Shown here piece after piece: positions 10,177-22,031 of a stretch of 28,416 bases of DNA (position 1 is the first letter of the stretch; every line of letters begins with the position of its first letter). The notes under the pieces are model-generated. The model saw only the letters and a program-made list of their open reading frames with translations. It did not search any database and was not told where the DNA came from. A program made the translations under genes and the position numbers. The stretch is taken from the NCBI GenBank assembly GCA_964370635.1, contig CAYJJU010000019.1:4900-33315 (forward strand). The letters run 5' to 3'. The DNA is from an uncultured Eubacteriales bacterium (GTDB taxonomy: Bacteria; Bacillota; Clostridia; Oscillospirales; Acutalibacteraceae).

Positions 10177-10212
10177 TTGACATGTATTTGCATGTACGCT
10201 ATAATGTACATG
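10177..10212 (+). promoter_or_regulatory. Consensus sigmaA promoter with overlapping TGTAC(A) palindromic operator candidates for the TA operon.
   Basis: TTGACA (10177-10182), a 17-nt spacer, then TATAAT (10200-10205). The motifs catgta, gcatgtac and tgtacatg are interleaved with the -35, the spacer and the -10. Confidence 0.65.
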
Positions 10213-10225
10213 AGAGGTGACGTTT

Positions 10226-10474
10226 ATGATAAACACTAATATAACCAATTTTAGGAAAAATATTTTTGATATGCTAGGGCAAACGATTAAATGGGGTGAA
10301 CCGCTAAATATAAGTACAAAAGATGGGAATGCCGTGGTACTAAGTGAAGAGGAGTACAATGGCCTCATTGAAACGGCGGCTATAAATGCAAATCCCCTAC
10401 TTAAAACAAAAATTATTGAAGGCCTTAACACGCCTTTAGAGGAATGTGTTTTAGAAGAAGAGGTGGATTTTTAG
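10226..10474 (+). CDS. yefM: Type II antitoxin, Phd/YefM family.
   Basis: The ATG at 10226 lies 6 nt after GAGAGGTG, so the ORF-track GTG at 10217 is less likely. The N-terminus reads INTNITNFRKNIFDML...GEPLNISTKDGNAVVLSEEEYNGLIET, typical of YefM. The gene pairs with a downstream YoeB-like ORF. Confidence 0.85.
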   Translation: MINTNITNFRKNIFDMLGQTIKWGEPLNISTKDGNAVVLSEEEYNGLIETAAINANPLLKTKIIEGLNTPLEECVLEEEVDF

Positions 10475-10737
10475 TGTATAAAATTGTTTACACGAAAAAA
10501 GCATCTCTTGACATTCCAAAGTTAAAGTCGGCAGGCCTTGGCAAAAAGGCTAAAATGCTAATTGATGTATTAAGAGAAAATCCATACCAAAAACCACCTA
10601 GCTTTGAAAAATTGCAAGGTGATTTACTTGGCGCATTTTCAAGGCGAATTAATATAAAACACCGACTTGTATATCAGGTATATGACAGTGAAAAAACCGT
10701 TAAGATAATTAGCCTTTGGTCACATTATGAGTTTTAA
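10474..10737 (+). CDS. yoeB: Type II toxin, YoeB/Txe family mRNA interferase.
   Basis: The GTG at 10474 overlaps the antitoxin stop (TAGTG), with the RBS gaagaggtgg upstream. The sequence VYKIVYTKKA...NPYQKPPSFEKLQGDL.GAFSRRINIKHRLVYQV....VKIISLWSHYE is typical of YoeB. Confidence 0.85.
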   Translation: MYKIVYTKKASLDIPKLKSAGLGKKAKMLIDVLRENPYQKPPSFEKLQGDLLGAFSRRINIKHRLVYQVYDSEKTVKIISLWSHYEF

Positions 10738-13325: not shown

Positions 13326-13355
13326 AATTTGTACAAATTATTATCCTTGTATTTG

Positions 13356-13384
13356 TTGACAACTTACAAAGGGTATGTTAAAAT
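13356..13384 (+). promoter_or_regulatory. SigmaA promoter candidate for the lipoprotein gene.
   Basis: TTGACA (13356-13361), a 17-nt spacer ending in tgt, then TAAAAT (13379-13384). Confidence 0.55.
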
Positions 13385-13424
13385 AGCGAAGTTCGCAAAA
13401 CATACAAATAAGGAGTTAAAATTT

Positions 13425-14279
13425 ATGAAAAAAATTATTCTTGCCATAATGCTTTGCATGGCTACACTTTTAGTCGCATGTAATTCAGCACCGGCACAAG
13501 AAGACAGTTCATCACCAGTAGAAAATGAATCACAAGAAGAGAGCGAGTCACAAGAAGAGAGCGAAGAATCAGAATCTGAGCTTGAAAGTGAAGAGCCTGA
13601 AGCTACGCCCGAGCCTGAAGCCACACCAGAGCCTGAAGTAGAAGAAGAGGGCAACGGTGACATGGTTGTAGGCGACTTAGGTATAGATGTTACTACGGCA
13701 ATTGATGCAACAAGCACAACGGCACAAGCACCTGCAGCCATTGGCCAATGGGTAAAAACAGCACGTTATGCAACCGAAGATGACACTTATCACACTATTT
13801 ATGTTAGAGTAAACAGTGTTACAACTCAAACAGAAGACGATGCGTACGTGCAAGAAGCAATTGAGGCGCATAACGCTGTAAGTTACGAATTTTCACAGTT
13901 TACTGTTGAGGATTTAAACCTGCCCGCAGATGTAGAAGTTTGTGTTTTAGATTATGATGTATATATCCCTGCAGAATTTCCGGAAAATCCTGATATAGGA
14001 ATTACAACCATAGATGTAAGCTTCAGTGCAAGCAATATTGAGGGTGGCGGAATACCATCGGCAGACGGCACAAGCACATACATAGGCATGGGTCTTGCAG
14101 ATGATTTGGCTCTTTTAGAAGACGCTACATATTATGCAGGCAATATTTATCCACAAAGAAGCTATTTTGTAATGGTAAAAGGCTTTGAAGGATATGTTTT
14201 AGACTATATTTCATACCCCGACATGACTACTGATACTTCGGAAACCGAATATTATGAGGCATTCCACGCAGCGAACTAA
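13425..14279 (+). CDS. Lipoprotein with an acidic low-complexity linker. Function is unknown.
   Basis: The ATG at 13425 follows AGGAG. The signal peptide MKKIILAIMLCMATLLVAC carries the lipobox LLVAC. An ESQEESESQEES...EPEATPEPEATPEPE tract follows, then a roughly 190-aa globular domain. Confidence 0.75.
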   Translation: MKKIILAIMLCMATLLVACNSAPAQEDSSSPVENESQEESESQEESEESESELESEEPEATPEPEATPEPEVEEEGNGDMVVGDLGIDVTTAIDATSTTAQAPAAIGQWVKTARYATEDDTYHTIYVRVNSVTTQTEDDAYVQEAIEAHNAVSYEFSQFTVEDLNLPADVEVCVLDYDVYIPAEFPENPDIGITTIDVSFSASNIEGGGIPSADGTSTYIGMGLADDLALLEDATYYAGNIYPQRSYFVMVKGFEGYVLDYISYPDMTTDTSETEYYEAFHAAN

Positions 14280-16608: not shown

Positions 16609-16636
16609 TTGACAAGTAGAAAAAAAGGAGTATAAT
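16609..16636 (+). promoter_or_regulatory. SigmaA promoter candidate for the aldo-keto reductase gene.
   Basis: TTGACA (16609-16614), a 16-nt spacer, then TATAAT (16631-16636). Confidence 0.55.
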
Positions 16637-16669: not shown

Positions 16670-17491
16670 ATGAACTTAAAATTTGCAAACGGTAACTCAA
16701 TTCCCATGGTAGGTCTTGGCGTATTTTTATCAGAAGATGGAAACGAGACCGAAAATGCAGTAAAATGGGCACTTGAAGCAGGATATAGACATATAGATAC
16801 TGCAAAAATATATGGAAACGAAGAGAGTGTCGGCAAGGCTATGAAAGAAAGTGGAGTGAAAAGGGAGGATATATTCCTTACAACAAAGCTTTGGAATGAA
16901 GACATTAGACAAGGCAGAAACAGAGAAGCTTTTTACGAAAGCCTTGAAAAACTTGGAACCGATTATATAGATTTATATCTAATTCACTGGCCGGTAGAGG
17001 GCAGGGTAGAGGCTTGGCTTGAAATGGAAAAACTATATAAAGAGGGACTAATAAAAAATATAGGTGTCAGCAACTTCCATAAAGAACATCTGGACGAGCT
17101 GTTGGCAAAATCATCTATAGTTCCATGCGTAAATCAAATTGAATCTCACCCAAGGCTAACAAACTGTGAGCTAATTGACTACTGCAAGGGCCTTGGAATA
17201 GAAGTTCAAGCATGGAGCCCACTAGGTGGCGGAACAACTGCTGCAGAGCTTCTAAAAAATGAAACACTTGTAGGCATAGGCGAGAAATACGGCAAATCAG
17301 CGGCGCAAGTAATCATCAGATGGAATTTACAAAGAAACGTTATAGTTCTTCCTAAATCTGTAAAAAAAGAAAGAATTATTCAAAACTTTGACGTGTTTAA
17401 TTTTGAACTTACAAATGAGGACATGGAAAAAATTTATGCGCTTAACACAAATTCAAGAGTAGGCGCCGACCCAATGAATTTTAATTTTTAA
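16670..17491 (+). CDS. Aldo-keto reductase (2,5-diketo-D-gluconate reductase / YtbE-YvgN-like).
   Basis: The ATG at 16670 follows aaagaggaaa. Motifs: PMVGLGVF, HIDTAKIYGNE, LWNED, LIHWP, NQIESHP and IVLPKS. Confidence 0.9.
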   Translation: MNLKFANGNSIPMVGLGVFLSEDGNETENAVKWALEAGYRHIDTAKIYGNEESVGKAMKESGVKREDIFLTTKLWNEDIRQGRNREAFYESLEKLGTDYIDLYLIHWPVEGRVEAWLEMEKLYKEGLIKNIGVSNFHKEHLDELLAKSSIVPCVNQIESHPRLTNCELIDYCKGLGIEVQAWSPLGGGTTAAELLKNETLVGIGEKYGKSAAQVIIRWNLQRNVIVLPKSVKKERIIQNFDVFNFELTNEDMEKIYALNTNSRVGADPMNFNF

Positions 17492-17568
17492 TTTAAATTA
17501 TTTAGAGGTAGTCCTGTGTGACGGTTATTGTTGTTTTACAGAATTTTTACAATTTATATGCAGTCAGC

Positions 17569-17597
17569 TTGACATTTTAAAAAGGATACCATATAAT
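17569..17597 (+). promoter_or_regulatory. Consensus sigmaA promoter with no ORF downstream (candidate sRNA promoter).
   Basis: TTGACA (17569-17574), a 17-nt spacer, then TATAAT (17592-17597). Confidence 0.6.
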
Positions 17598-17603
17598 ATA
17601 AGC

Positions 17604-17692
17604 ATAGGGCACTACCGATAGACGGTTGCCCAAAATTAGTGATTAAGAAAGTAACCGCCGTTTTTGAGAATGAGGGCGGTTATTTCTTTTTT
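17604..17692 (+). ncRNA. Candidate roughly 90-nt antisense sRNA (putative type I antitoxin RNA).
   Basis: It starts about 7 nt after the -10 box. A 5' hairpin gggca..accg-ataga-cggt-tgccc lies at 17609-17633. It ends at the hairpin taaccgcc/ggcggtta (17652-17682) followed by tttctttttt. No RBS-preceded ORF is present. The 3' part is complementary to the 3' end of the minus-strand small ORF transcript. The ends are predicted, not measured. Confidence 0.4.
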
Positions 17693-17754
17693 ATGTTATA
17701 GAAAAACAATCCAAAAATCATTAATACTATAGTTAGTATTTCAAAATCTGTCAT
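17680..17754 (-). CDS. Unannotated 24-aa hydrophobic peptide MTDFEILTIVLMIFGLFFYNIKKK, a candidate type I toxin resembling the TxpA/BsrG/BsrE 'holin-like toxin' class.
   Basis: The ATG at 17754 lies 7 nt after GAGGGGG. The peptide forms one TM-like helix plus a KKK tail. The N-terminus M-T-x-F-E-x-L resembles M-(S/T)-x-(F/Y)-(E/Q)-x-L of the Bacillus type I toxins. The gene has its own consensus promoter, and its stop codon sits inside the shared terminator stem. It is too short to appear in the ORF track. Confidence 0.45.
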   Translation of the reverse strand: MTDFEILTIVLMIFGLFFYNIKKK

Positions 17755-17864
17755 AGTAATTCCCCCTCTCTCCCAAAAGGTTTGAGGGCATTTTTATAGA
17801 AATATATACCCTCTAAGGGTTAGAGGGCAACCGTCCACCGTTTATAGTAGTGTCCTACAATTTT

Positions 17865-17893
17865 ATTATACAAATTATTACATATTATGTCAA
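17865..17893 (-). promoter_or_regulatory. Consensus sigmaA promoter (minus strand) driving the small-ORF transcript.
   Basis: On the minus strand: TTGACA (17893-17888), a 17-nt spacer, then TATAAT (17870-17865). Confidence 0.6.
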
Positions 17894-17934
17894 ATGGTTT
17901 TGTGTAAATCTCACTTTGAATTGTCCAAAATTTA

Positions 17935-17968
17935 TAAAATAAAAGATAGGGGATGAAAACCCTATCTT
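17935..17968 (-). terminator. Rho-independent terminator of metG.
   Basis: Minus-strand stem aagataggg/ccctatctt with an 8-nt loop, followed by ttattttat. Confidence 0.7.
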
Positions 17969-17984
17969 AAAATTTATTTAATCA

Positions 17985-19970
17985 TCAATTATTTTCAAAC
18001 TGACTTGGGTGTTTTGAGAAGAAGTCTACTCTGGGCTCTAGGAATTTTAGTTTTTCTTCGCTGTTTCTCACACTTGAAAGAGGGGATAATATAAAGTCCC
18101 AGTTCCATAAGTCATCGCTTGCTCCGAGATAATCTTTTATCATTTCACTGCCCTGTGGTGCTATGGAGTGTAAAAGAGTTGTGATTACTTTTACGCCGTA
18201 AAAACAGTCGGTTAAGATTTGTGCCCTTAAGGCGTTGTCCTCGTTTTTCTCGGCTTCTTTGATGTTTGACACCCAGTGTTTATTCATAAATCTTATAAAT
18301 TCGTCTAAAACATAGGTGAGTCTGTGGAAGTCGTGGTTATACATATGTCTTTCAAATTCAAACGCCTTTTCTTCACAGTAGCTAAGGATTTTTTCGTCTA
18401 CTTCACCCTGTGGAATTACGCTGTCAAAATAAGTTTGAGTGGTGTAAAAACAAGAGCGAACCAGTCTGTTAAACACATTTGTCAAGAGATTGCCCTCTTT
18501 TAAAACGGGATCTTTTGACTCTCTTTCATTTTCGGGAAGATACACATTGGGTTGGAAACTTGCGTTTTTATTTGCAAGTCCAAGGCTTAAAAAGTGAATT
18601 CTGAGTTGCTCTGCCGTGTAGTGGTCTAAAAGCTCTGATGCCATAGGTGGCTTGATGTCTGATGAGGAAGAAGCTTTCTTGTTCATAAATAATATATGCT
18701 TGTTGTCTACAATATGAGGAAGATTTACACCCTCTAATTTGTAGGCGTCTTCTTTTTCATCGGCATAAAACGACACAAACATGCCCATTTCTGCAATGCC
18801 ATAAAAATAAATATTGTCTTCGCCTATGAACTGATAGACTTTTGAATCCTTGTCTTTCCAAAAGCTTTCCCACTCCTGTACGTCACGACCTACTGAGTTT
18901 AGATAGGCCTTAGTAAATGAGATAGGCGCCCAAAGGGATTCGGGCCATACCCAGAAAGTGAGATTGTCAAGTCCCTCGCAGTTTGGAACGGGAACGCCCC
19001 ATTCGCAGTCGCCTGAAAGTCTAAATGGAACCAAGGTTTTACCTGTTCTAAAGCGAATTTCTTTATTTGTTAAAAGCTCACGTGCTGTATCTCTGTCGGT
19101 TAAATTCTTAAATATAAAGGTGTAAGACGGTTTTTTCTCTTCATTTATAAGCTCGTGTTGTGGCAGGTCTTTGCAAAGTGCCTCAAGGTCTTCTACCTGT
19201 GTTTTTTGCACATAGATGACAGGGCTTTTTAAAAATTCTTCAATAGAGCGTATCATGTGTTTTCTGTGCACTCCGCCCTTTTTCCAAGCGTCAACCGCTT
19301 CCGTCATAAGCTCTAAATAGCTGTCGAGTTTAAAATACCAGTTTGTCACATCACGAAGCTCGGGAGTCTTTCCTGTAAGAGTTGATTTTGGGTCAATTAA
19401 TTCCTCGGGATTATACTGATGGCCTAAACCGCATTCGTCTGCATATGCTTTTTCCGAAGCGCAACCCTCAAACGGGCATTTGCCTACTACTTGTCGACCG
19501 TTTAAAAAAACTTCACGCTCGGTGTCGTAAAACTGTGGGGTGGATTCCTTTACGAGGCTGCCATTTTTATATAATTTTTCAAAAAAATCTTTAGAAACTT
19601 CATTATGCCACTCTTTTGCAATTCCCATTCCCGAAGCGGCAAATAAATTTGGCTTAATTAAATAGTCTGAAAGTGTCTTTTTTTGTAGCTCGTGGTTTTC
19701 TCCAACATAATCTTCAATGCTGCCCGAAAATCCACTTTCGCAAAGCTGTCTGTAGCCCTCTAGCGCAGGTGAGCCATAGCAGTCTGTGCCTGATACAAAT
19801 ATTACATTTTCATGTCCTATTCTATCCCTTAAAAATCTGGCAAAAGTGTCGGCGTGAACAAACAAACCGCCCACATGACCAAAGTGTAAGTCTTTATTTC
19901 CGTAGGGCATACCCGAGGTTACTATCGCTTTTTTCGGAAACACGGGTCTTTCTTTTTTAAATGGTTTCAT
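17985..19970 (-). CDS. metG: Methionine--tRNA ligase (class I aaRS of a MetRS-like subfamily, with a divergent KMSKS region).
   Basis: SGMPYGNKDLHFGH (HIGH-type motif), VSGTDCYGSP, and the MetRS-like knuckle insertion GKCPFEGCASEKAYADECGLGHQYNPEELIDPKS. The KMSKS position reads NKKASSSS. Length is 661 aa. Confidence 0.75.
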   Translation of the reverse strand: MKPFKKERPVFPKKAIVTSGMPYGNKDLHFGHVGGLFVHADTFARFLRDRIGHENVIFVSGTDCYGSPALEGYRQLCESGFSGSIEDYVGENHELQKKTLSDYLIKPNLFAASGMGIAKEWHNEVSKDFFEKLYKNGSLVKESTPQFYDTEREVFLNGRQVVGKCPFEGCASEKAYADECGLGHQYNPEELIDPKSTLTGKTPELRDVTNWYFKLDSYLELMTEAVDAWKKGGVHRKHMIRSIEEFLKSPVIYVQKTQVEDLEALCKDLPQHELINEEKKPSYTFIFKNLTDRDTARELLTNKEIRFRTGKTLVPFRLSGDCEWGVPVPNCEGLDNLTFWVWPESLWAPISFTKAYLNSVGRDVQEWESFWKDKDSKVYQFIGEDNIYFYGIAEMGMFVSFYADEKEDAYKLEGVNLPHIVDNKHILFMNKKASSSSDIKPPMASELLDHYTAEQLRIHFLSLGLANKNASFQPNVYLPENERESKDPVLKEGNLLTNVFNRLVRSCFYTTQTYFDSVIPQGEVDEKILSYCEEKAFEFERHMYNHDFHRLTYVLDEFIRFMNKHWVSNIKEAEKNEDNALRAQILTDCFYGVKVITTLLHSIAPQGSEMIKDYLGASDDLWNWDFILSPLSSVRNSEEKLKFLEPRVDFFSKHPSQFENN

Positions 19971-19990: not shown

Positions 19991-20884
19991 TTATATGAGT
20001 TTAACAGCCAAAGGTAATTCGCTTACCGTGTCTTGTGTTTTATAAACATATATTATAGCAGTTTTATCAGAAATTGGCAAATTTAAATTTTCGCCTTTAC
20101 TGTGTTTTTGTAGAGTAGAGCCGGATTTTGTCTTTAGCATGACATAACAGTCTTCATAGGGGCTTAAATCTTCGTTTTGTAAAGAGATATTTATATATCC
20201 ATCTTTAATATCTGAAAACACAAGTACACCACGGCTTACGAGTGTTTTTTGATTTTTTATAGCGTAGTCAAGCTGCTCAGACAGGCTTTTATCTTTGAAA
20301 TTATCAGGCAGTTCCATATAGGTAGTGTGTGCCGCTTTAATATCCTTTTTTGCATGCAAATCAAGTCCTGCGGTAGGGGCAATTTTATAACCCTTAAACA
20401 CTAAGTCCTCCCACATTTTTAAAGCCTTGACATTACAAGGAAAGTCGGGTGTGCCAAAGTTAATAATTTCTATAAAATCAAGTTTGTTATAGTCATTTAT
20501 CTCCATTACAAAACCCGTGCCGTTTGCTATTGGCTGAGAAAAATGCTTAGGGTGTGCAAGACCCACGACACCGCCGTCTTCATGCGCTCTGTCAAGCAGT
20601 TTGTCACAGTTTGACAGCTCTATGTCGTCCCACTCTATGTATTTTGTGATGTTATGGCATAAAATGTGCCCGTGATAAGAAGTTAGCTCATATCCTTTTA
20701 CATATTCAAACTCAGGTTTTTCTTTAAGATATTCATCAAGTACACAAAAACCCGATATCGTGTTGTGGTCGGTGAGGGAGAACGCTGTCACGCCTTCATT
20801 TAGGAAAAAATCTACGAGTTCTCTTGCGGTAAGACTTCCGTCAGATTCTACAGTGTGGTTGTGAAGTTCAATTTTTTTAAACAT
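19991..20884 (-). CDS. PHP-domain metallophosphoesterase (CehA/McbA-like) with a roughly 90-aa beta-rich C-terminal extension.
   Basis: I prefer the ATG at 20884, 6 nt after GGAGA. The ORF-track start at 20923 would overlap the upstream gene by 47 nt. Motifs: ELHNHTVESDGS, SLTDHNT, GLAHP and LDLHA. Confidence 0.75.
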   Translation of the reverse strand: MFKKIELHNHTVESDGSLTARELVDFFLNEGVTAFSLTDHNTISGFCVLDEYLKEKPEFEYVKGYELTSYHGHILCHNITKYIEWDDIELSNCDKLLDRAHEDGGVVGLAHPKHFSQPIANGTGFVMEINDYNKLDFIEIINFGTPDFPCNVKALKMWEDLVFKGYKIAPTAGLDLHAKKDIKAAHTTYMELPDNFKDKSLSEQLDYAIKNQKTLVSRGVLVFSDIKDGYINISLQNEDLSPYEDCYVMLKTKSGSTLQKHSKGENLNLPISDKTAIIYVYKTQDTVSELPLAVKLI

Positions 20885-21338
20885 CTTCATTCTCCTTTTC
20901 ACTAACAGTAAGTACAAAATCAAGCTCTTTATCTATCACGAAATAAGAGTTTATTATTATTTTTAAATGGCCTTTTATAGAAGTGTCAATTTTAAGGCAA
21001 CCACGGCTTCTTTCACAGTTTTTGCCAAAGTACATGTCCTTGTTGTCTAAAGGATTATGCTGGTTTCCTATAAACTCACCGTTTAAAAATGCCGCAAGCT
21101 GTATTTCTGTTTTAGGATTATTATACAGCTTTTCTAAATTTTCCTCTTTAAAATACTCACCGCTTGCCTTTTTGTAGTCGCTTATTAACTGTTCTTTATA
21201 GGCAAGTGCGTTTTCTTTTTTATCACCCGGGAAAGTTTCAAGGCTTATCCTTAAAAAATCTGTCGGCTCTTTTACATGAAATTGATAAGTTATATTGCCA
21301 ATAAAATTTTGGGGCAAAGTACCCTTGAATGAAGTCAT
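20877..21338 (-). CDS. Hypothetical protein of 153 aa with no recognisable motif.
   Basis: The ORF has the RBS GGAGA 7 nt upstream of its ATG. Its 3' end overlaps the PHP gene start by 8 nt (ATGTTTAA), which suggests translational coupling. Confidence 0.6.
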   Translation of the reverse strand: MTSFKGTLPQNFIGNITYQFHVKEPTDFLRISLETFPGDKKENALAYKEQLISDYKKASGEYFKEENLEKLYNNPKTEIQLAAFLNGEFIGNQHNPLDNKDMYFGKNCERSRGCLKIDTSIKGHLKIIINSYFVIDKELDFVLTVSEKENEDV

Positions 21339-21356: not shown

Positions 21357-22031
21357 TTATAAAAGTCTAGTATTATTTATAATAAGCTCAAAGTCTAAAT
21401 TAAGAAATTTAGCGGCTTTTCTGCAAAGTACCATACGCTCTAAAAATATTTCAAAGTATTCCATTACAGGGCATATGCTTGTGTCAATTGTGATGTAAAA
21501 AACGCAGGTTTTATCCTGGGGGTTAATTTCAAGCCTTGATTCCTCGACGGCATAGTTTACCCTGTCGTGTATGTCGGTGGCCAAGTTCATTTGCCTTACC
21601 CTCGTGCGCCTTACATCGCTCTTGTCAGACAAAATCAAGGCGGCGGCAACGTGATTTACGGGAAATGCGGTTTTTTCGTCGTGGTAGCCTATGGCAGAAC
21701 AGATAAGAGCGGTCTCTTTTGGGTCCATGTTAAGGGACTCCAGTATGTTAAATGCCATAAGTGCGCCACTGTGTGCGTGGTCCACTCGGTTTACAACATT
21801 TCCTATGTCGTGCATAAATCCTGCAATTGCTGCAAGCTCACAGCTTCTCTTGTCAAAGGAGAGCAGTGTTAATATGTCTCTTGCATAATCACTTGTTCTT
21901 TTTGCATGGGCAAGGCCGTGCTCGGTATATCCGAGCGCATCTAAAAAGTCGTTTCCGCTTTCAATATATGCACGTATTTTCGTGTTTTTAAATATTTCAT
22001 CAGGGGTGATTTTATTATACATAGTTTCCAC
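21357..22031 (-). CDS. HDIG-domain metal-dependent phosphohydrolase.
   Basis: HGLAHAKRT ... GFMHDIGN (the H...HD...D pattern with an HDIG signature) ... GYHDE. Length is 224 aa. Confidence 0.8.
   Translation of the reverse strand: METMYNKITPDEIFKNTKIRAYIESGNDFLDALGYTEHGLAHAKRTSDYARDILTLLSFDKRSCELAAIAGFMHDIGNVVNRVDHAHSGALMAFNILESLNMDPKETALICSAIGYHDEKTAFPVNHVAAALILSDKSDVRRTRVRQMNLATDIHDRVNYAVEESRLEINPQDKTCVFYITIDTSICPVMEYFEIFLERMVLCRKAAKFLNLDFELIINNTRLL

Follow-up and report, generated by a model that had tools for sequence, protein, structure and literature searches.

The stretch of DNA analysed here, called the window throughout, is 28.4 kb long and comes from an uncultured Eubacteriales bacterium (Acutalibacteraceae); coordinates are window positions. 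Our subject is the 490-bp gap between its gene for an aldo/keto reductase (AKR; 16670-17491, plus strand) and the convergent metG gene (17985-19970, minus strand), in which a first-pass annotation had proposed a small toxin-antitoxin module. The gap is indeed not empty, and all of the sequence elements that had been listed for it are present. In particular, two perfect TTGACA-N17-TATAAT promoters face each other exactly where they had been placed (Table 1). Perfect TTGACA-N16-18-TATAAT sequences occur 4 times across the window, where shuffles lead one to expect 0.03, and this convergent pair accounts for two of them. On the single assumption that these promoters fire, we regard it as confirmed that the gap holds a genuine, unannotated convergent two-gene unit.

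With RNA starts placed 7 nt past each -10 box, and RNA ends derived from promoter and terminator, the minus-strand gene would give an mRNA with a leader of 104 nt, close to the 100 nt or so that had been estimated. The predicted fold of this mRNA has a minimum free energy (MFE) of -55 to -56 kcal/mol (z = -3.5 against dinucleotide shuffles), and the bases of its Shine-Dalgarno (SD) sequence are paired with a probability of 0.8-1.0 in the predicted ensemble, in keeping with the sequestration by ccctc boxes that had been suggested. Namely, two alternative folds are predicted, and a CCCUC box occludes the SD in both: in one of them this is the GCCCTC box, itself part of direct repeat D2, and in the alternative fold it is the CCCTC box of the leader hairpin that pairs with the SD, matching the consensus of the family described below. 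That hairpin, earlier read as ccctcta/tagaggg, is real, but it is longer than the 7 bp claimed for it, and of the two further ccctc boxes assigned to the leader only GCCCTC belongs there, the other being in the loop of the terminator.

Downstream of the SD lies the open reading frame (ORF) that had been described, with its 24 codons and its hydrophobic helix and lysine tail; the top 15-residue Kyte-Doolittle window of the peptide scores 2.51. That the ORF is translated we infer from its SD and from its equivalence in position to a family ORF that carries a coding signature.

The plus-strand gene would yield a small RNA whose predicted fold has z = -5.6 against dinucleotide shuffles. As had been noted, it has no credible ORF, the only candidates being of 20-22 codons and none of them having a ribosome-binding site. 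A single bidirectional terminator ends both RNAs and gives their 3' ends 47 nt of perfect complementarity, about what had been expected; outside this terminator they have no such stretch. The common hairpin, taaccgcc/ggcggtta at 17652-17682, encloses the stop codon of the peptide in its stem, again in agreement with the first reading of the sequence, and T-runs follow on both strands. The duplex prediction recommended at that time gives a computed -80.1 kcal/mol for the 47-nt RNA duplex versus -31.6 kcal/mol for the two separate hairpins. What is more, the final lysine codons of the peptide (AAAAAG) double as an A-run, and it is the complement of this run that supplies the antisense terminator with its U-tract.

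Table 1. Predicted and directly read features of the convergent module in the AKR-metG gap.
Feature	Position	Strand	Basis
Small-RNA promoter, TTGACA-N17-TATAAT	17569-17597	+	consensus match 12/12
Antisense small RNA (antitoxin-type), predicted ~89 nt (17604-17692): 5' hairpin, A-rich linker, terminator	17601-17692	+	match to model R1 and fold
Small-RNA 5' hairpin, GGGCA-CU-ACCG-AUAGA-CGGU-UGCCC	17607-17631	+	predicted fold
Bidirectional intrinsic terminator	17646-17693	both	stem 17649-17685, T-runs on each strand, inverted repeat I18
Predicted peptide (toxin-type) mRNA, ~213 nt: leader 104 nt, 24-codon ORF, terminator	17646-17858	-	promoter and terminator
24-codon ORF MTDFEILTIVLMIFGLFFYNIKKK, single hydrophobic helix and KKK tail	17680-17754	-	reading frame
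Leader homologous to family toxin-mRNA leader	17743-17858	-	covariance model R2
SD GAGGGGG, 7 nt 5' of ATG	17762-17768	-	read directly
Second anti-SD box, GCCCTC	17784-17789	-	pairs with SD GAGGG in MFE and centroid folds
Leader hairpin with first CCCTC box (CCCTCTAA/TTAGAGGG)	17807-17829	-	8 perfect pairs, 10 including G-U
5' motif TAGGACACTAC..ACGGTGGACGGTTGCCC, common to plus-strand RNA start	17825-17857	-	inverted repeats I1, I4
Peptide-mRNA promoter, TTGACA-N17-TATAAT	17865-17893	-	consensus match 12/12

A module family recognised by its RNAs

A module of the same layout was found in a Lachnospiraceae metagenome-assembled genome (MAG; locus L077) by searching the fetched loci for pieces of the 5' motif that the two window RNAs have in common, but its ORF is a different one of 32 codons (MILISYEALIALIALCGGAGYLLGKDINKTKK). 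Two covariance models of the resulting family, one of the small RNA (R1, from 11 loci) and one of the leader (R2, from 10 loci), were built with the window excluded. R1 matches the window at 17601-17689(+) with 43.2 bits (E 1.3e-6), 17 bits above the next match, which is an unrelated terminator, and in 716 kb of other Clostridia loci it finds only the L077 copy. The top match of R2 in the window is the leader (23.1 bits, E about 1e-3, computed as 1.2e-3), with the anti-SD helix kept, and the two matches stand in the correct relative order and orientation. The elements matched in this way are, for the small RNA, a 5' hairpin ..CTACCG..CGGTTGCyC, an A-rich linker and a terminator, and, for the leader, a 5' hairpin, ACGGT(A)GGACGGTTGCyCTC and the anti-SD helix with the inner hairpins that it encloses. 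Family members also have TTGACA / TAnAAT boxes where the promoter of the peptide mRNA sits in the window.

The consensus fold of the family leader consists of a 5' hairpin, a long-range anti-SD/SD helix and two hairpins enclosed by it. In an alignment of 13 leaders, 96.8% of the cells pair and 5 pairs show two-sided changes, values that no shuffle reached, the alignment being model-fitted, which favours pairing. The anti-SD helix is paired in 100% of the cells in these 13 sequences, and its box tracks the variant of the SD, with CUCUCC/GGAGA in most members, CCCUCC/GGGAGG in the L266 locus and CCCUC/GAGGG in the window. The terminator helix of the family has 3 compensatory pairs. The core of the small-RNA 5' hairpin, ACCG...CGGTTGC, does not vary among 15 family members, and no covariation is seen in it, so that its sequence, and not merely its shape, seems to be constrained. 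The predicted RNA parts of the window thus place its module in an undescribed family, in which its peptide is an outlier: only E5, L7, Y19 and the KK tail align with the family peptide, at 29% identity.

What do the other members encode? The 32-residue peptide has relatives in 49 clusters (90% identity), all of them unnamed or 'hypothetical' and none with a Pfam domain, and their consensus is M[IV]T[LI]SYEALIALIALCGGAGYxLGKDIxKAKK. One such cluster has entries for 555 blocks in the index of the assembly collection, and a profile scan of 1.84 billion representatives returned only 20 family-peptide clusters at 50% identity. Judged by its pattern of substitution, the 32-residue family ORF is clearly coding: the first, second and third codon positions have 14, 5 and 25 variable columns, its pairwise codon differences comprise 451 synonymous versus 312 non-synonymous ones, and stop codons crowd both alternative frames. 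A metagenome scan for the CCCTC leader variant gave 8 matches, the sole genuine one being L266, which carries a third type of peptide (MITISIQTIYYFVAIISIVCSAAYKLGYENGKNAKK; shuffle z 7.2 against the family peptide). Peptides of three types, with 32, 36 and 24 residues, were seen behind the module.

Members of the family occur in prophage tail regions adjoining a PemK-like gene, in an island with ParE, HipA and two duplicated pairs of a helix-turn-helix gene and a 50-residue gene (L102:100-4099), and beside two tRNA genes (L097:1508-1686; L099:1-1524), with an integrase and a Rep-like gene at the latter site. The leader motif is found on 12 IMG/VR viral contigs, and there are ordinary chromosomal settings as well, such as that of the abundant P0013 type between oxidoreductase and GGDEF genes. 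The family RNAs correspond to no Rfam family and the family peptides to no Pfam, NCBIfam or PADLOC entry, and a blastn search of the module against cultured phage and plasmid records gave no match. In the literature we found neither the motif of the 32-residue peptide, for which an earlier listing among the Clostridiales TxpA-like or Fst-like hits in the tables of Fozo et al. 2010 is possible, nor any report linking type I systems to such a Lachnospiraceae family. On these searches, the predicted family is undescribed and widespread in gut Clostridia (Lachnospiraceae-type genomes) and their prophages.

Some copies depart from this pattern. A viral contig (L257:940-1420) has a degenerate copy, in which the leader survives as far as the SD, with unrelated sequence in place of both the 32-codon ORF and the gene for the small RNA. 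In clusters P0008, P0012, P0022, P0025, P0039 and P0053 and at locus L241, the C-termini extend beyond KAKK (...KAKSNCP..., ...KAKKQLSS...), apparently because the AAAAAAG run differs in length by a single base; these could be places prone to slippage or mistakes of assembly. The double use of the A-run as template of the U-tract helps to explain both the conserved KK tail and such frameshifted C-termini in several clusters.

Lack of conservation of the small ORF in homologous intergenic regions had been named among the findings that would refute the earlier proposal. Taken literally, this is what we see, since the closest relative does not preserve the ORF in that interval; the RNA scaffold of the module, however, is conserved at non-syntenic places in other genomes. 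Namely, among MetRS relatives taken from 80 species-level genomes, the closest, an uncultured Clostridia MAG (L001; MetRS 95% identical), has the same AKR and GNAT neighbours with the module absent. Its metG-AKR interval (L001:5990-7436, 1.45 kb; window counterpart 17492-17984) holds an AraC-type regulator and a VOC/glyoxalase gene, and a further relative (L002) has still other genes downstream of metG, which makes this interval a variable spot. No module lies downstream of metG in the 80 MetRS loci, the L077 family copy being located 3.4 kb from metG.

The type I toxin-antitoxin interpretation and its competitors

We think it fairly likely, on the strength of these sequence comparisons, that the window locus is type I toxin-antitoxin-like, a divergent member of an RNA-defined module family that is contained in no library. 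The anatomy is the one first proposed for it, with a hydrophobic peptide gene that has its own, sequestered ribosome-binding site and a convergent non-coding RNA complementary to the 3' end of its mRNA, and homologous modules elsewhere lie in prophages and toxin-antitoxin islands. In such a system, the strong promoter at 17893 would make the ~213-nt mRNA, and the pairing of a CCCUC box of its leader with GAGGGGG would keep the 24-codon ORF silent. The strong promoter at 17569 would make the ~89-nt convergent RNA, which, by analogy with known systems, may contact the mRNA via the complementary terminator loops. This contact could then zip into the 47-bp duplex, and the duplex could either mark the mRNA for RNase III cleavage and decay by 3'-exonucleases or lock it in its SD-occluded form. 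Upon loss of the small RNA, the peptide would be made and the membrane would be damaged or remodelled, again by analogy.

If this interpretation is right, the known type I toxin-antitoxin systems would gain a new family that is abundant in Clostridia of human and animal guts, as well as in the prophages of these bacteria, and that current annotation misses wholly, its members being called 'hypothetical protein' or not called at all. The two RNA models, together with the peptide profile, would let the family be annotated across thousands of gut genomes. In the window copy the regulatory RNAs are recognisable and the peptide is not, and searches by peptide only therefore miss such loci. Moreover, an A-run of lysine codons that doubles as a U-tract template, along with the common 5' motif, could explain the evolution and control of such compact modules.

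Which of the known systems does the module resemble most? The par locus (Fst/RNA I-RNA II) on pAD1, a plasmid from Enterococcus faecalis, has convergent promoters, a single bidirectional terminator and a leader structure that hides the SD, and contact between its RNAs begins at the complementary terminator loops (PMC7472228). The window has the same arrangement of convergent promoters, common bidirectional terminator with complementary stem-loops and SD-sequestering leader, and its peptide is, like the par toxin of ~30 residues, hydrophobic with a charged C-terminal tail. Copies of par are located on mobile elements and chromosomes, and so are those of the present family. Unlike Fst, the window peptide has neither the PxxxG(C) motif nor the conserved Trp, containing no Pro or Trp at all, and it matches no Fst model. 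The window small RNA is also longer than that of par. In par, the direct repeats DRa and DRb make the 5' ends of the RNAs complementary across the start site (PMC7472228), whereas in the window the 5' ends form an inverted repeat in the DNA, so that both RNAs start alike. All in all, the predicted layout of the window has more in common with par/Fst-RNA II than with the geometry of txpA/bsrG, and membership in the Fst family is not supported.

The direct repeats that define par are not evident in the window, and a second pairing site of the par kind, between the small-RNA linker and the region of translation start, lacks statistical support. The best site in the window mRNA for CCCAAAA of the small RNA is UUUUGGG, immediately 5' of the SD, and CUGAAA/UUUCAG occurs at the equivalent place in 7 of 10 relatives (by eye), yet it is not their best site; the pairing energies are no better than those of shuffles (z -1.5 to +1.1), and the site is the best one only in the window.

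The type I modules of Clostridioides difficile (CD....1 / RCd) share with the window and its family a clostridial host and, in relatives, an association with prophages, and their toxins likewise have a hydrophobic N-terminal region and a Lys-rich tail (PMC6563280). These toxins are 34-59 residues long and have no sequence similarity to other families (PMC6563280), and we found no relationship of the window peptide or RNAs to these modules in any of the libraries searched.

That said, several observations weigh against a toxin-antitoxin system at this locus. The R2 match to the leader is weak (23 bits), and the E-values of both models are rough, because their calibration was shortened. Comparison of the window peptide with the 32-residue family gives an hhalign probability of 0.4% and a shuffle z of 0.1-1.9. 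The peptide is unmatched in 5.8 billion predicted proteins, in JGI metagenome contigs and in IMG/VR (all searched with a tandem duplicate of the peptide as query), as well as in the library of 1.84 billion, and tblastn against plasmid and phage records gave no match. Pfam, NCBIfam, PHROGs and PADLOC yield no defined toxin family for it, a sub-threshold match to Heimdall-CTERM (19.8 bits, cut-off 24 bits) and one to a PHROGs 'membrane protein' (E 0.08) reflecting composition only. Peptides so short are rarely called as genes, and for this reason absence from protein sets is weak evidence; still, without homologues, the coding status of the window peptide depends on its position alone. In addition, with its 24 residues the peptide offers a hydrophobic stretch on the short side for spanning a membrane, and the window copy sits among housekeeping genes and not in a mobile element.

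Would the anatomy be any different if the peptide were not a toxin? It would be identical for a benign membrane peptide, perhaps one that modulates a transporter or sensor, whose synthesis is tuned by a cis-antisense RNA and which shows no toxin-antitoxin or addiction behaviour. The place of the window copy among core metabolic genes and the chromosomal setting of the abundant P0013 type agree with such a role, and some of the described type I 'toxins', such as YhzE-2, are non-toxic on overexpression (PMC2887945). On the other hand, prophages, the ParE/HipA island and integrase/tRNA sites harbour other copies, and close relatives differ in whether they have the module, a distribution more in line with selfish or defence cargo than with a regulator of housekeeping. 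Silencing at two levels, by SD occlusion and by antisense RNA, in combination with two consensus promoters is, moreover, typical of genes that have to be kept off. We consider a benign peptide unlikely, if with a probability that is far from negligible.

Another explanation is that the window ORF is not translated at all, and that the locus either consists of two convergent small RNAs that code for nothing or is what decay has left of a family member, its peptide having disappeared. No homologue of the peptide is detectable, its length falls 8 residues short of that of the family peptide, degenerate copies do exist, as in L257 and the frameshifted C-termini, and the two RNAs have a 5' motif in common, as paralogous small RNAs would. 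Set against this are an intact ATG ORF at exactly the position of the family ORF, with a strong GAGGGGG SD at 7-nt spacing, an anti-SD box that fits the SD variant, a stop codon within the terminator and a Lys tail as in the family, and a composition that is that of a clean hydrophobic helix. What is more, neither promoter departs from the consensus, and decay would not predict this. An untranslated ORF is, in our view, quite improbable.

Finally, there is the question of whether the window belongs to the Bacillus TxpA/BsrG/BsrE (Hol_Tox-type) family, with an antitoxin of the RatA/SR4 type, whose geometry the first-pass annotation had recognised here. The bsrG/SR4, txpA/RatA and bsrE/SR5 systems, like the window, have a 3'-overlapping antisense RNA and an SD that is partly in a helix (PMC3834814, PMC6563280), and their toxins, often located in prophages, are likewise hydrophobic with a basic tail (PMC3834814, PMC6563280). 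Three stem-loops of the 294-nt bsrG mRNA have their complement in SR4 (~180 nt), which works by way of RNase III and remodelling of the SD (PMC3834814). In the window, by contrast, the overlap is confined to the 47-nt terminator, unlike that of SR4 or RatA (PMC3834814), and convergent promoters with one terminator make up the par layout; the proposed geometry is not supported. The peptide, with 24 residues versus 38-59 in the bsrG/txpA/bsrE group, is shorter than the described members, as had been pointed out. No Rfam family reaches its gathering threshold in the window, and we dismiss the weak matches (BsrG, rli28, SAM-III) as chance; BsrG reaches 14.8 bits (E 0.41), its gathering score being 55. 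The match to Listeria rli28 spans the whole peptide mRNA (17684-17880(-), 26.4 bits, threshold 45, E 0.32) and was treated in the same way.

The suggested search with Hol_Tox (PF16935) and other type I profiles gave no Pfam, NCBIfam or PHROGs toxin match at E up to 10, either for the window peptide or for 29 family peptides. The positive control for detection of such short peptides, a genuine Hol_Tox gene of 38 residues (MTTFEIVSTILTVV...; L104:1236-1352(-)), passes its threshold, with 24.1 bits against a cut-off of 23.3. This gene lies 650 nt from a family module, and its flanks (1100-1480) contain, by eye, a convergent promoter and a common terminator of its own; its leader is the second-best match to R2 (12.4 bits, E 0.03 in 2.5 kb). 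Its peptide and that of the window have in common an N-terminus of the form MT-x-[FY]-E-I-[LV]-x-x-[IV]-L, a single hydrophobic helix and a basic C-terminus, but the window peptide is 14 residues shorter and the similarity is limited to the first 11 residues. Over these, MTDFEILTIVL of the window and MT[AT][YF]EIVSTIL of the Hol_Tox-positive subfamily align in 11 columns at 55% identity (hhalign probability 36%, pairwise E 3.8e-4; shuffle z = 4.8), the comparator having been picked after the resemblance was seen. The claimed likeness to the N-terminus of this toxin class therefore stands for these 11 residues, with a comparator chosen post hoc, and does not extend to family membership. Despite the short N-terminal alignment, the faint BsrG match and the second-best leader, the confinement of the overlap to the terminator and the silence of all toxin and Rfam models make membership in this Bacillus family highly improbable.

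The common 5' arm and the surrounding sequence

Both window RNAs begin with TAGGrCACTAC..ACGG..TTGCCC, and the motif GTGCTACC...ACGGTTGCyC heads both RNAs across the family (alignments A1, A2). The arm is a matter of identity between the two RNAs and not of complementarity between them. It could serve as a 5' stabiliser or as a site for a protein or RNase, it could fold back in read-through transcripts, or it could have arisen by descent from an inverted duplication. Because this conserved arm opens the mRNA as well as its antisense RNA, the latter might, beyond antisense pairing, mimic the mRNA or compete with it for a common partner, whether an RNase, a protein that binds RNA or the 3' arm of the mRNA itself. 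This idea belongs to a wider reading, in which a conserved RNA chassis, made up of promoters, 5' hairpins, anti-SD helix and common terminator, takes up unrelated membrane peptides and may be controlled in a manner so far undescribed for type I systems; we regard this reading, mimicry included, as rather improbable.

Several specific roles for the arms and their motifs were considered and set aside. Invasion of the mRNA 5' hairpin by the arm is 10/11 complementary in some members (by eye), and the viral-contig type has a central C-A mismatch. Pairing of the small RNA with the Gly-Gly codons (CGGUGG) is seen in some members only. For concerted evolution of the 5' arms, the difference between cognate (8.0/12) and non-cognate (7.1/12) arms is too small, and the register is uncertain for two members. 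No model supports a reading of the ACGG/CCCUC motifs as mini-ykkC, preQ1 or another riboswitch. In the Hol_Tox module of L104, by eye, both RNAs also start with a common sequence, AGAGAGTATC.

In the remainder of the window, three ORFs coding for 224-316 residues, at 13329-14279(+), 19991-20923(-) and 21357-22031(-), match no Pfam family at E 1e-5. The remaining perfect consensus promoters are at 10177-10205(+), with ORFs at 10217-10737 downstream, and at 16609-16636(+), where the promoter drives the AKR gene with a leader of ~27 nt. We see no intrinsic terminator in the stretch that leads from the AKR stop codon to the promoter of the small RNA (17492-17568), and AKR read-through would stop at the terminator of the module, with the entire small-RNA sequence as its 3' untranslated region. 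A repeat resembling half a terminator, CGGTTATTGTTGTTTTA, lies at 17522-17538 and is similar to 17677-17693.

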